Positions 1-60,583 are shown, numbered from the stretch's first letter. The stretch is DNA of 60,583 nucleotides from a virus (IMGVR_UViG_3300030451_001154:1-60583), one strand, 5' to 3'. The notes: generated from the sequence alone by a model not told the origin. Made by a program: numbers and translations.

Positions 1-231
1 CATAGGTCCAAACACTTTAAAAAGAGTCCACATGATTGAGAACGCTACAAGTGGATCACAAAATATAATTATATCACAAGGTTCTGGTGCAAATGTAACC
101 ATAGGACCTGGCGATACAAAGGTTGTTTACCTTGATGGTGCAGGTTCTGGTGCGGCTGTTGTAGATGCTTTTGTGGATTTAGATTTATCTGGTGGTTCTG
201 TAAATGTGAGCACAGTCAAAACTAATTCTGG
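1..231. repeat. Terminal overlap with 60353-60583 (circular assembly junction)
   Basis: 231-nt alignment with 8 substitutions (positions 1,13,82,106,109,121,124,154); 155-231 identical (77 nt). Confidence 0.95.
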
Positions 232-772
232 TGATATGACATTTGATTCTGCTGGAGATATTATTCTCGATGCAGATGGTGCTGATGTTATATTTAAAGA
301 TGGCGGAACATCTATTGCACACTTAACAAACTCAAGTAGCGATTTTGTTATTGAAACAAAAGTACAAGATAAAGACTTTATTGTAAAAGGAAACGATGGT
401 GGCTCTGGTATTACAGCACTTACAATTGATATGTCTGGTGCTGGAGCGGCGACTTTTAACAATGATGTAACTGCTTTTTCTGACGAAAGACTTAAAGAAG
501 ATATACAACCTATTGTTGGTGGACTTGAAAAAGTTATGCAACTACAAGGTGTAAGTTACAAAAGAAACGATGTTGAAAATGCTAAAACACAGATAGGTGT
601 GATAGCTCAACAAGTCGAATCAATCTTACCAGAAGTTGTTTTGACTGCCGATGATGAAATGGGTACAAAATCAGTTGACTATTCTAAGATGACTGCTGTA
701 CTAATAGAGGCAGTAAAAGAGTTAAAACAAGAAATAACACAACTAAAACAACAAATAAATAACGGAGCATAA
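1..772 (+). CDS. Tail fibre, C-terminal part with peptidase S74 intramolecular chaperone (gene starts at 60111 and wraps)
   Basis: FSDERLKEDI autocleavage motif, IGVIAQQVE, VDY...LIEAVKEL coiled coil; frame continuous with 60111-60583. Confidence 0.9.
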   Translation, partial: IGPNTLKRVHMIENATSGSQNIIISQGSGANVTIGPGDTKVVYLDGAGSGAAVVDAFVDLDLSGGSVNVSTVKTNSGDMTFDSAGDIILDADGADVIFKDGGTSIAHLTNSSSDFVIETKVQDKDFIVKGNDGGSGITALTIDMSGAGAATFNNDVTAFSDERLKEDIQPIVGGLEKVMQLQGVSYKRNDVENAKTQIGVIAQQVESILPEVVLTADDEMGTKSVDYSKMTAVLIEAVKELKQEITQLKQQINNGA

Positions 773-775
773 TAA

Positions 776-2059
776 GTGGCGATACCAAGTTCTGGACAAT
801 CTTTATCTTTCTCTGCACTTAGAACTGAATTTGTTGGTGGGTCTAGTGCAATTAGTTTAGGTGACCTTTACAGAGGTGGTTCTAATATTTTAAAAAAAGC
901 TGGAGATAATCAAGCTACAAATCTTGCAGCTAATGTTGCCACTTCTGGTGCATTAGATGTTAGTGATTATTACGATCAAGCAAAAGGATTTACTTTCACT
1001 TACTCTACTACTTTTTTGAGTGGATCAAGTGGAACAGATCAAAATGTATCAACATTGTTTGGTGATGATTACGATGTTAATTATCCAAAGAATGTTGTTA
1101 TACCATCAGGTATAACACTAGGATCTAACAACACAGCAGAATATGGTTTAGAAGTAGATTCTGGTGGAGCTGGTACAATAACAATTACTAATAACGGAAA
1201 CATTATTGGAGCGGGTGGAGCTGGTGGATCAGCTGGAGCCGCAGGTACTGGTGGAGCGGGTGGAGCTGGAGGCAATGGATCAGCTGGAGGCGATGCCGTA
1301 AAAGCCGCAGTTGCATGTACCATTATAAATAACGGAAGTATCTTAGCTGGAGGCGGTGGTGGAGCCGCTGGTGGTGGAGGTGGACTAGGTGGAGCTCTTC
1401 AACAACAGCAACAAACCACTGGTCAACAAGGTCCGACTTATTATGCTGGTGGATATGCTACACAACAATATATTTGGCAAGGAATTTTTCAACAAGGTTT
1501 TGGAAACCCTATAGGTGCTCAAGCTAACTGGGGTCCTGGAAATCCAGATGGTATAGTTGGGACAACAGCATCATCTCATCCTCGTTATATTCCAGGTTTG
1601 GCTGGACAGACTTCATTTACATTTGGACAGTATACTTATTATAGAGGTGGCTATAGAGGTGCTAACCAATTTAATACTTTCAACACCCTCTATAATATAT
1701 ATAGACAATTTCCTCAATCACAACAAACTCAAGTGGCTGGACATGCAGGAGCCGCAGGTGGAGCTGGTGGATTAGGAAGAGGATTTAATAATCAACCTGG
1801 TGGAGACTCTGGTGCATCTGGAGGTTCTGGAACAACTGGTCAAGCTGGAAACGGTGGAAACGGTGGAAACGGAGGCGATGGTGGTGGCTATGGTCAAGCT
1901 GGTTCATCTGGTCAAGCTGGTCAAGCGGGAACAAATTCATCTACTAATGGGTCTGCCGCAGGTAGTGCAGGTAGTGCGGGAGCGGCAGGTAATTATATCG
2001 AAGGAATTTCAAACGTAACTTTAACAAATAACGGCACAGTCGCAGGAGGCACAGAATAA
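776..2059 (+). CDS. Gly-rich tail adhesin / receptor-binding-like protein
   Basis: GTG start; GGAGG polyglycine blocks flanking an aromatic/Gln-rich segment; follows tail fibre. Confidence 0.7.
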   Translation: MAIPSSGQSLSFSALRTEFVGGSSAISLGDLYRGGSNILKKAGDNQATNLAANVATSGALDVSDYYDQAKGFTFTYSTTFLSGSSGTDQNVSTLFGDDYDVNYPKNVVIPSGITLGSNNTAEYGLEVDSGGAGTITITNNGNIIGAGGAGGSAGAAGTGGAGGAGGNGSAGGDAVKAAVACTIINNGSILAGGGGGAAGGGGGLGGALQQQQQTTGQQGPTYYAGGYATQQYIWQGIFQQGFGNPIGAQANWGPGNPDGIVGTTASSHPRYIPGLAGQTSFTFGQYTYYRGGYRGANQFNTFNTLYNIYRQFPQSQQTQVAGHAGAAGGAGGLGRGFNNQPGGDSGASGGSGTTGQAGNGGNGGNGGDGGGYGQAGSSGQAGQAGTNSSTNGSAAGSAGSAGAAGNYIEGISNVTLTNNGTVAGGTE

Positions 2060-58403: not shown

Positions 58404-58859
58404 ATGGCTATAGCACAAGCAATGTGTACTTCCTTCAAGAAAGAGTTACTAGAAGGTGTACACAATTTTAAAAACTCAGGTGGAGATACTTTTAAGTTAG
58501 CTCTATACGCAGAAGGTGGTGGTGGTAAATCATCAACAACTGCAACACTAGGAGCAACCACAACTGCATTTACTACAACTGGTGAAGTTGCAAACAGTGG
58601 TTCATACAGTTCTGGTGGTGGCACTTTAACAAGAGTAGATCCAACTACATCTGGAACAACAGCGTTTACAGACTTTGCTGATTTAAGTTTCACAACTGCA
58701 ACAATCACAGCAATGGGAGCTTTAATTTATAATAGTTCTGATAGTAACAAAGCTGTTTGTGTATTAGATTTTACATCTAATAAATCATCTACATCTGGAA
58801 CATTTACAATACAATTTCCAACTGCTGACGCTTCCAACGCTATTATTCGTATAGCATAA
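58404..58859 (+). CDS. Virion structural protein
   Basis: CTSFK.ELL...FKLALY...GALIYN...FTIQFP family. Confidence 0.7.
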   Translation: MAIAQAMCTSFKKELLEGVHNFKNSGGDTFKLALYAEGGGGKSSTTATLGATTTAFTTTGEVANSGSYSSGGGTLTRVDPTTSGTTAFTDFADLSFTTATITAMGALIYNSSDSNKAVCVLDFTSNKSSTSGTFTIQFPTADASNAIIRIA

Positions 58860-58869
58860 GGAGTCCTCA

Positions 58870-60111
58870 ATGGCGAACATCGCTTGGGGTGAACAAGGTT
58901 GGGGTCAAAACAAGTGGGGTGGTCAACTAGACGTTAGCTTTAGCGTTACTGGTTTTGAAGCCACCACATCACTTGGCAACGAAGAAATTTTTATTGCTAA
59001 TGTTGCTGAGCCTACTGGAGTATCTGCTACTACAACTTTAGATTTTGATCCTACAACAGATTTAGTTATACCAGTTACTTTTTCTGTCACTGGAGTATCT
59101 GCCACTGCTGGATTTTTATCTGGTTGGGGTAGTTCTGCTTGGGATGCTGGAGTATGGGGTGGTGGTGTTTTTGCCGATGTAGGTCAAATACTTCCAATGA
59201 CTGGTGTTGAAGCCACTGGTCAATCTAATAATCCAACCGTTACTGGTACAACATCTTTTGCCGTCACTGGTGTACAAGGTTCTGGTGAACTTGGAGACGA
59301 AGGCACTGTCCCACAAAACTTAGTTGCAGTAACACAATCTGCAATGACTGGATCTGTTGGTAACACGGTAGAAACTGGAACTGGAACTTTTAGTCTAACT
59401 GGTAATTCTGCTGAAACTCTAATTGCAGGAACATCATCTTCTACAATAACTTTTACTGTGACCGTTGTTAGTGGTAATCCTTCAAACCATCCTTATTACA
59501 ATCAAGGATCAACAAATAAGTACGCTATTAATGGATCGACTGCTACCAGTGATGTTACTTTAACCATGTATGAAGGTAACACTTATAGATTTGATCAAAG
59601 TGATAGTAGTAATGATGGTCATCCAATTAATTTTTATGAGACTGCGGATAAAAACACTGCTTATAGCAGTGGTGTTACTTTTAACATAGATGGTTCCACT
59701 GTTTCACGAGATCAGTATGTAGACAGTAGCACTTTTAACGCAGGCACAACGAGATATATAGAAATAACTGTCCCAGCTGGAGCACCAACATTGTATTATC
59801 AATGTTATAACCACGCTCTGATGGGATATTTTGGAACCACTCCTTTTTCTGTATTAATAGTAACGACAACTGGAGCACCAACTACTGGTGTTGTAGGAAC
59901 AACTGCTCTAGGAGATGAAACAGTTATAGGAACTGCTGATGTTGCAGTCACTCTAGCTGGTCTTAGTATTAGTGTAGGCACACTTGCCTTAACTGGTACT
60001 TCTGTGGTATCTTTAACTGGAGTTAATGCAACTGGTTCGACTGGTGAAGAACAAGTTTATAGTTTAATTAAACCCACGCAAGTGGCTAACTGGATAGAGA
60101 AGGCAGCATAA
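58870..60111 (+). CDS. Tail/virion protein with TGVS repeats and inserted cupredoxin-like domain
   Basis: WG...WG motifs, (V/L)TGV repeats; GHP...YYQCYNHALMG. Confidence 0.7.
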   Translation: MANIAWGEQGWGQNKWGGQLDVSFSVTGFEATTSLGNEEIFIANVAEPTGVSATTTLDFDPTTDLVIPVTFSVTGVSATAGFLSGWGSSAWDAGVWGGGVFADVGQILPMTGVEATGQSNNPTVTGTTSFAVTGVQGSGELGDEGTVPQNLVAVTQSAMTGSVGNTVETGTGTFSLTGNSAETLIAGTSSSTITFTVTVVSGNPSNHPYYNQGSTNKYAINGSTATSDVTLTMYEGNTYRFDQSDSSNDGHPINFYETADKNTAYSSGVTFNIDGSTVSRDQYVDSSTFNAGTTRYIEITVPAGAPTLYYQCYNHALMGYFGTTPFSVLIVTTTGAPTTGVVGTTALGDETVIGTADVAVTLAGLSISVGTLALTGTSVVSLTGVNATGSTGEEQVYSLIKPTQVANWIEKAA

Positions 60112-60583
60112 TGGCAACATATGTTAACAATTTAAGATTAAAAGAAATAGCAACTGGTGATGAATCAGGAACATGGGGTACTTCAACCAATACAAATCTT
60201 GAATTAATTGGTGAAGCACTAGGTTTTGGTACGGAAGCCATAACCACAAATGCTGATACACATACTACGACTGTAGCAGATGGATCGGCAGATGAGGGCA
60301 GAGCCATGTATATTAAATATACTGGTACATTAGATTCTGCATGTACAATAACTATAGGTCCAAATACTTTAAAAAGAGTCCACATGATTGAGAACGCTAC
60401 AAGTGGATCACAAAATATAATTATATCACAAGGCTCTGGTGCAAATGTAACCATAGGTCCAGGCGATACAAAAGTCGTTTACCTTGATGGTGCAGGTTCT
60501 GGTGCAGCTGTTGTAGATGCTTTTGTGGATTTAGATTTATCTGGTGGTTCTGTAAATGTGAGCACAGTCAAAACTAATTCTGG
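60111..60583 (+). CDS. Tail fibre, N-terminal part (continues at position 232 after circularisation)
   Basis: MATYVNNLRLKEIATGDESGTWGTSTNTNLELI; open to window end. Confidence 0.88.
   Translation, partial: MATYVNNLRLKEIATGDESGTWGTSTNTNLELIGEALGFGTEAITTNADTHTTTVADGSADEGRAMYIKYTGTLDSACTITIGPNTLKRVHMIENATSGSQNIIISQGSGANVTIGPGDTKVVYLDGAGSGAAVVDAFVDLDLSGGSVNVSTVKTNS

Follow-up and report, generated by a model that had tools for sequence, protein, structure and literature searches.

Why should a virus genome lack GCGC altogether, and keep GGCC, CCGG and CGCG only in one particular flanking context? The question is raised by IMGVR_UViG_3300030451_001154, a viral DNA of 60,583 nucleotides (nt), here called the window, which is the whole IMG/VR virus record, has a GC content of 36.6% and a CheckV completeness of 100, and carries a C5 DNA methyltransferase gene with a second frame nested inside it. 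An earlier note on this DNA, made by manual scan of the sequence, had proposed that host restriction sites are purged except where methylation of overlapping words by the phage enzyme shields them. We counted the sites exactly, compared them with shuffled nulls and with related phages, and weighed this proposal against other explanations.

The exact counts were identical to the approximate ones of that note. GCGC occurs 0 times; the 29 GGCC all have a 5' G or a 3' C (GGGCC/GGCCC), the 11 CCGG a 5' C or a 3' G (CCCGG/CCGGG), and the 12 CGCG likewise a 5' C or a 3' G (CCGCG/CGCGG), which places 52 of 52 sites inside the rule. Markov models of first and of maximal order predict 38 and 35 GCGC, 73 and 62 GGCC, 38 and 37 CCGG, and 20 and 19 CGCG. 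The codon-shuffled null, a check that the note had proposed, consisted of 500 synonymous-codon shuffles of the 84 called genes, which make up 94.6% of the window, every protein sequence and the codon usage of each gene being kept. GCGC, observed 0 times, is expected under this null 33.4±4.9 times (minimum 19). GGCC outside its context (HGGCCD) is expected about 32.5±5.2 times (minimum 17; second estimate 33.3), CCGG outside its context (DCCGGH) about 31.6±4.8 times (minimum 19; second estimate 31.3) and CGCG outside its context (DCGCGH) about 12.8±3.4 times (minimum 3; second estimate 12.9), and all three are observed 0 times; in round numbers, no bare site is present where ~33, ~32, ~32 and ~13 were expected. 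The exempt, in-context sites are near neutral frequency and not depleted (29 GGCC against 20.5±3.3, 11 CCGG against 14.9±2.7, and 12 CGCG against 9.2±2.9). The null fractions give probabilities of ~1e-12 for GGCC, ~4e-6 for CCGG and ~3e-5 for CGCG that all sites lie in context. As a control, the top single flank class of the 12 other 4-bp palindromes with sites in the window is at most 0.76, compared with 1.00 for GGCC, CCGG and CGCG. The context-conditional purge of GC-only palindromes is confirmed as real and strong, and its flank rule is strand-symmetric.

The same rule is visible where the protein sequence dictates the site. No dipeptide other than Trp-Pro forces GGCC, and the window has exactly three Trp-Pro pairs, all written TGG-CCC as the note had claimed, CCC being used for 40 of the 777 Pro codons. 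That these pairs are few and all carry CCC argues that selection acting on the DNA word prevails over constraint from the protein. Among the 40 best-supported population variants (10 kb; four runs from four studies) one creates a new GGCC, in an exempt context, and none creates a bare site.

We infer nucleases as the selective agent and methylation as the shield. GCGC is the target of HhaI-type, GGCC of HaeIII-type, CCGG of HpaII/MspI-type and CGCG of FnuDII/BstUI-type enzymes. Nucleases cutting these four G/C-only 4-bp palindromes would select strongly on the phage; bare copies would be lethal and removed through synonymous and amino-acid-level change, and copies inside GGSCC, CCSGG and CCGCG would be hidden from the nuclease, most likely by a methylated inner cytosine. 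The writer would be a two-polypeptide C5 enzyme of the phage itself, alpha supplying the catalytic large domain and beta the recognition modules and motif IX, and the 5-bp words of virion DNA would already bear the mark on arrival. The purge of bare sites implies that the phage enzyme apparently does not cover them. Purge and shield are likely, and the phage enzyme as writer is plausible, though not secured; taken as a whole, with that enzyme as the most likely writer, this is the best explanation we have, and we place it slightly on the probable side.

The flank rule could also arise with no shield at all, if the phage avoided the 6-bp words HGGCCD, DCCGGH and DCGCGH, its hosts having several nucleases with 6-bp or degenerate sites. 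The window does avoid 6-bp palindromes, and its ACGT pattern, given below, is best read in this way. However, for each core all nine flank combinations without the exempt base are absent, including AGGCCG/CGGCCT and GCCGGA/TCCGGC, and we know of no enzyme class that covers such non-palindromic pairs; a 4-bp cutter per core with a 5-bp exemption is far simpler. Furthermore, in the 201 kb pooled from clade A, the group of relatives that includes the window, 157 of 157 sites are inside the rule and 0 break it. We regard avoidance of 6-bp words as improbable.

Mutational decay would dispense with nucleases: the phage enzyme would methylate the bare tetramers, deamination of 5-methylcytosine (5mC) would erode them, and unmethylatable copies would survive. 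This agrees with the co-occurrence of purge and gene, and with CCAG/CTGG, the deamination product of CCGG, being the most enriched 4-mer in the window (524 against 399), but that excess of ~125 is far above the CCGG deficit of ~35. Moreover the loss is total (0 of ~110 expected), the few Trp-Pro pairs have all been recoded to CCC, and a rule satisfied by either flank fits blocked cleavage, not strand-wise methylation, so that decay deserves very little credence. Equally slight are the chances of self-avoidance, in which 4-bp-specific nucleases made by the phage degrade host DNA and its own sites are kept out. Such nucleases would explain why the purge tracks phage lineage. A Pfam scan of 42 proteins (41 open reading frames (ORFs), the methyltransferase in both frames), which covered about half of the 84 genes and each of the 10 small ORFs tested near the methyltransferase, gave no credible nuclease family, the only hit being PBECR3 at 16.7 bits, below the cut-off of 30.

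The preferred explanation, a purge with a methylation shield, directs attention to the methyltransferase. Six-frame searches of the window found a single PF00145 gene (METHYLTRANSFERASE), and no match to PF01555, PF02086 or PF02384. Residues 13-173 of its outer frame, alpha, align to residues 13-171 of M.HhaI (E=5.6e-16), and we take its layout to be motifs I-VIII, a low-complexity linker and motif X. The recognition-type modules sit in the nested frame, beta, and not in alpha, so that the phage methyltransferase with three recognition modules described by the earlier note is indeed present, as one C5 gene with three '(W/Y)xTP' modules in its nested frame. Module 0 is universal, module 1 is common with clade B, and module 9 is clade-specific. 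The coordinates of these features, together with those of the surviving sites, are collected in the table.

Table. Coordinates in the window of the conditional purge, the surviving sites, the Trp-Pro codon pairs and the frames of the methyltransferase gene
Feature	Position	Strand	Basis and details
Conditional purge: no GCGC, HGGCCD, DCCGGH, DCGCGH	1..60583	.	Counts and codon-shuffle nulls
29 GGCC in GGGCC/GGCCC	8095..55228	.	Site list and null; 8095, 10624, 15129, 15988, 19284, 20565, 22148, 23083, 23732, 25164, 25934, 27817, 28220, 32122, 34285, 34979, 36349, 36518, 37605, 38293, 41958, 44576, 48686, 49598, 49961, 50489, 53697, 55174, 55225
11 CCGG in CCCGG/CCGGG	19475..52810	.	19475, 25259, 28951, 33628, 34288, 34297, 34394, 34975, 42585, 50492, 52807
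12 CGCG in CCGCG/CGCGG	8067..55933	.	8067, 8756, 8783, 14257, 19465, 23196, 28113, 29406, 45267, 50334, 53370, 55930
Trp-Pro TGG-CCC, forced GGCC set in GGCCC	36517..36522	+	Large terminase
Trp-Pro TGG-CCC	44575..44580	+	2OG-Fe(II) oxygenase ORF
Trp-Pro TGG-CCC, overlaps surviving CCCGG	50488..50493	+	
Alpha, outer frame of C5 DNA methyltransferase, 362 aa	30576..31664	-	PF00145, E=1.2e-38
Beta, nested frame, 266 aa, read by us as recognition modules and motif IX	30659..31459	-	Translation; open frame in relatives
Three '(W/Y)xTP' modules of beta, ~aa 104-245	30725..31150	-	Alignment; coordinates converted from residues

A body of comparative evidence indicates that both frames are maintained. 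Beta stays an open frame in each of the 80 related loci, at identities as low as 38%, and the alpha frame is without a stop in 79 of 80, one locus (L006) having one stop in the span read; ~800 nt of the gene are thus dual-coding, with both frames open in 79-80 of the 80 relatives (L002-L081), to ~40% identity. In L141 and L147 a Val stands in place of the nested frame's Met, which we take for a GTG start in that position. Over nt 540-810 of the gene the beta frame is the better conserved (0.73-0.91, against 0.48-0.64 for alpha), and the linker between motifs VIII and X is poorly conserved in the alpha frame. The gene was present in 17 of 17 SNF2-anchored related loci that reach at least 5.4 kb upstream, and 2,563 beta-type proteins were found at E<=0.001 in a representative library. 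When the modules of 96 complete beta ORFs were clustered, they formed 20 clusters and 10 architectures of three to five modules each.

Beta alone has no Pfam or PDB sequence match, and an AlphaFold2 model of it (16-row alignment) had a mean predicted local distance difference test (pLDDT) score of 44.6 and was judged unusable. The predicted complex of alpha with beta residues 95-266 reached a median score of 0.87, compared with 0.00 for the best control; in calibration, 58 of 80 solved complexes and 2 of 110 mismatched pairs attained such a mark. The partner had a pLDDT of 48 or more, and agreement between runs covered at least 31% of contacts. Confident contact with alpha is made only by the last module and motif IX; beta residues 241-263 touch alpha residues 330-345 in the model. 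The pass may reflect a likeness of the model to solved single-chain C5 methyltransferases.

The Bacillus-phage C5 methyltransferases of SPR, phi3T, rho11s and H2 are single orphan polypeptides with tandem modules, which methylate the restriction sites themselves and are taken to counter several restriction-modification systems. The family in the window likewise has tandem modules that are gained, lost or swapped among relatives, but, unlike in SPR and phi3T, its motifs and modules are split over two frames. Paenibacillus phage Jacopo has this nested pair too, annotated there as two coding sequences, and of 50,697 phage records searched by tblastn with beta, 51 matched (48 named Paenibacillus phages, 2 named 'Phage' and 1 'Bacteriophage'), with no Bacillus phage among the matches listed. 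Homologues of beta were found in many phyla in one scan of genome contigs, and are probably in prophages. The arrangement is that of M.EcoHK31I, where, according to PMC2836561, beta is nested in alpha and carries motif IX; the beta ORF of the window similarly lies wholly inside alpha in another frame, both being kept open. The recognition domain of M.EcoHK31I is said to be in alpha, whereas in the window the recognition-type modules are in beta, in three copies, and are shuffled between relatives.

If the phage enzyme writes the shield, which words would it mark? The earlier note had equated the three contexts with three methylation specificities and these with the three modules. Two motifs are enough to cover the rule of the window, for example C(5mC)C with CCGC, or GCCC with CCSSG, and three contexts consequently do not imply three specificities; with module 0 universal and clades of the same modules following different rules, the equation is not supported. 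No single motif accounts for all three contexts in a brute-force search of 2-5-nt IUPAC motifs. Concerning the shield words GGNCC, CCNGG and CCGC suggested by the same note, the contextual exemption of sites holds, but GGNCC is doubtful. GGWCC is mildly depleted (26 against a null of 43.6) without any flank rule, which makes GGNCC less likely than GGSCC or the asymmetric GGGCC as the methylated word. The note had listed GGWCC as common together with GATC, AGCT, CCWGG and GCNGC, and these other four are indeed near the codon-shuffle null (GATC 234 against 226, AGCT 230 against 257, CCWGG 63 against 62, GCNGC 109 against 109). A short 'CCC' shield was rejected, as it predicts a flank rule for GGWCC and none was seen. 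Depletion of CAGG/CCTG outside CCWGG, once considered as support for CCNGG methylation, was dropped because the depleted unit is WCAGG/CCTGW itself.

Relatives were collected in two ways. A search with the nested methyltransferase frame gave 127 viral stretches, of which 80 were kept, and a search with the SNF2 helicase gave 591, of which 80 were also kept; clades were typed by their beta modules, and the DNA of each was pooled with repeated 21-mers masked. In clade A (modules 0, 1 and 9) the sites in context are 87/87 for GGCC, 40/40 for CCGG and 30/30 for CGCG. Its closest group has 0 GCGC in 122.8 kb, and an independent 61.9-kb genome from another sample repeats the rule (33/33 GGCC, 18/18 CCGG and 9/9 CGCG in context; 0 GCGC). 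In clade B (modules 0, 1 and 4; 324 kb) all CGCG are again in the CCGCG context (43/43), GGCC is preceded by G in 53 cases, by A in 24 and by another base in 0 of 77, so that AGGCC makes up 24/77 compared with 0/87 in clade A, and GCGC is found as RGCGC (47/47). The Trp-Pro pairs of clade B use CCC (7) or CCT (2) in 9 of 9 cases and never CCA or CCG, which fits the RGGCC/GGCCY rule of that clade; across clades G, D, E and F and two methyltransferase-less isolates, 0 of 36 pairs use CCC. The contexts allowed in clades A and B thus differ, and the same two clades differ in their last module.

Beyond these two, GGCC and CGCG are free or differently ruled in five further clades, where CCGG is found solely in CCSGG (46/46). 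In clade G (architecture 14, 0, 10, 7; L160-L162, which form G003, with L072, L074 and L077) GCGC appears only as RGCGCA (24/24), ACCGG/CCGGT holds 31 of 37 CCGG, and there is 1 CGCG in 68 kb. The CCSGG exemption for CCGG is the closest to a universal feature across clades, clade B-TSS apart. One assembly of 77,651 nt (G002; L156-L159), in which bare sites are numerous over the first 25 kb, was considered as a counter-example and rejected, because its terminase, portal and capsid genes are each present twice; two related phages appear to have been joined in it as a chimera. Its duplicate genes have different identities to the window and it contains an N run, and CheckV nonetheless rates it 100% complete.

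The phage enzyme is the obvious writer because it is the sole DNA methyltransferase found, is universal in the purged clade, has shuffled modules, and shows different contexts in clades A and B. We infer its identity as writer, and the words it would mark, from these patterns. In a bolder form of this reading the exempt words would be a direct readout of the specificity of the module-shuffling alpha/beta enzyme, and comparison of clades would yield a module-to-word code. A last module 9, for instance, may go with GGGCC only, module 4 with RGGCC and RGCGC, and the module-14 architecture with GCGCA and ACCGG. This direct code we consider rather doubtful.

Several results weigh against the phage enzyme as writer, or against such a code. 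Module 0 is present in 96 of 96 typed enzymes, whatever their context rule. Clades of the same modules differ in their tolerance of CCGG, CGCG and GCGC: group 2 of clade A, with the module set of group 1, has 4 CCGG in 78 kb; one contig of that group (L086/L013), with the module architecture of the window, has 10 GCGC over 13.3 kb, all RGCGC, while its GGCC and CGCG still follow the window rule; and subclade B-NAG, with the modules of clade B and a different rule, has 0 CGCG and 0 GCGC. Clade B-TSS has no CCGG in 80 kb, which speaks against universality of the CCSGG exemption. No such purge is seen in Paenibacillus phage Jacopo, despite its homologous nested enzyme. Finally, module architecture tracks backbone divergence, so that a host effect and an enzyme effect are inseparable in this comparison. 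The comparison of module sets with surviving contexts that the earlier note had suggested gave a divided answer, in that contexts and last module change together between A and B, and same-module clades differ.

These points bear on the possibility of a shield that the host or another factor writes, such as a shared CCSGG/CCNGG, GGSCC or CCGC methyltransferase, the phage enzyme marking other words. The isolates nearest to the window are informative here. Pelagibacter phage HTVC023P (MN698239.1; L169 and L252), whose whole genome matches neither PF00145 nor PF01555, the C5 and N4/N6-type methyltransferase families, and which has no recognisable cytosine methyltransferase, keeps CCGG in CCSGG, with 21 sites inside and 4 outside against nulls of 10.9 and 23.3, and this too counts against the phage enzyme as writer. 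These CCSGG sites are dispersed and do not lie in a repeat. A host writer would also account for the 46 of 46 CCGG in CCSGG in five clades with differing modules, some of whose phages have no other gene in common with the window, and for the differences between same-module clades. On the other hand, HTVC027P, from the same host strain as HTVC023P, has 9 CCGG inside and 37 outside and no CCSGG rule. In 4 of 4 complete isolates without the methyltransferase there is no purge of GCGC or GGCC, and the GGCC, CGCG and GCGC rules are confined to genomes with a methyltransferase, being shown by 0 of these 4 isolates. Furthermore, the change of context from A to B coincides with a change of last module, and the gene is universal in its clade. 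The earlier note had held that the same pattern in relatives lacking the enzyme would point to host methylation; such a pattern was found for the CCGG context, in one of the four isolates, and not for the GGCC and GCGC rules. A host-written shield is a serious rival, mainly for CCSGG, and one that we consider unlikely overall.

The elements of the preferred explanation are known separately, site avoidance and methyl-shielding being textbook defences of phages against restriction. Overlapping methylation blocks restriction enzymes, as in Dam/Dcm overlap or the protection of GGCC by a GGNCC methylase, an effect of in-vitro and cloning work. The principle, that a longer methylated word makes an overlapped shorter target uncuttable, would in the window be met as a genome-wide and family-wide evolutionary footprint. 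Site avoidance in phages has been described by Rusinov et al. 2018 (PMC6286503), where, as in the window, Type II-like palindromes are under-represented with respect to nulls. Avoidance in the window differs in depending on one flanking base, with exempt copies neutral, and the word 'overlap' does not appear in that paper. Site avoidance, methyl-blocking, multispecific phage enzymes and the nested alpha/beta gene have thus each been reported, and their combination in a flank-conditional footprint was not found in the literature searched. Should the exempt words prove to be the methylated ones, the sequence by itself would reveal the methyltransferase specificity of an uncultured phage and the restriction pressure of its hosts, and the specificities of thousands of uncultured phage enzymes would become predictable. 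It could then also be established that several 4-bp restriction systems are present in the hosts of the methyltransferase-bearing branch of a very abundant marine phage group. The ten module architectures, with their differing context rules, provide a natural experiment on modules and motifs, and the large typed family makes the module-to-motif question testable.

By core proteins and gene order, the phage of the window is related to the HTVC023P-type marine podophage group. Pfam matches on its minus strand include a family A DNA polymerase, a UvrD-type helicase, an AEP primase and an SNF2 helicase, and those on the plus strand a large terminase, an SU10-type portal, a capsid protein and 2OG-Fe(II) oxygenases. 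Among isolates, phage 023Pt_psg01, phage DSL-LC04 and the Pelagibacter phages HTVC023P and HTVC027P come nearest, with identities of 49-53% in PolA and 66-69% in the capsid; for HTVC023P these are 49% in PolA, 54% in TerL, 49% in the portal and 69% in the capsid. The order primase, helicase, PolA, terminase, portal, capsid and 2OG-Fe oxygenases is common to the window, HTVC023P and HTVC027P. A preprint on this group (10.1101/2019.12.14.876532) calls it the most abundant known marine viral group and reports hints of non-SAR11 hosts. The hosts of the nearest isolates are Pelagibacter and a gammaproteobacterium. Positions 19001-29000 of the window are present, partly or nearly whole, in 20 marine or seawater runs from 13 studies. 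Megablast with 10 kb and tblastn with ORF 776-2059 found no match in phage records. A 60,834-nt contig from a Neomarinimicrobiota bin (PBPT01000002.1; L173) has distant homologues of three window genes, the methyltransferase (34% identity), a Pam3 gp34-like protein (27%) and the SNF2 helicase (23%). The contig has the size of a phage genome and may come from a related phage that was binned with a possible host, a weak hint that is insufficient to name one.

Restriction-type avoidance shapes the genome of the window in general. Compared with the codon-shuffle null, YACGTR (0 against 19.3), AACGTT (0 against 14.9), GACGTC (0 against 3.0), AGTACT (0 against 13.9) and ATGCAT (1 against 17.3) are avoided, and ACGT overall is present 46 times against 110. 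Words other than the four GC-only palindromes are avoided in a relative too: the methyltransferase-less phage 023Pt_psg01 (MW574966.1; L168 and L253) has 0 CATG in 59.8 kb, compared with a codon-shuffle null of 82, and its four GC-only palindromes are at expectation. In the window WCAGG/CCTGW is ~four-fold depleted in both orientations (38 against ~164 in the coding sense), CCWGG being at expectation. Evasion of sites by keeping them in a single orientation is known for Type III systems; the 40 remaining copies of WCAGG/CCTGW are in both orientations (24 and 16), and single-orientation evasion is consequently not seen. GCNGC, at expectation overall, divides into GCSGC, which is enriched (45 against 24.9), and GCWGC, which is depleted (64 against 84.5).

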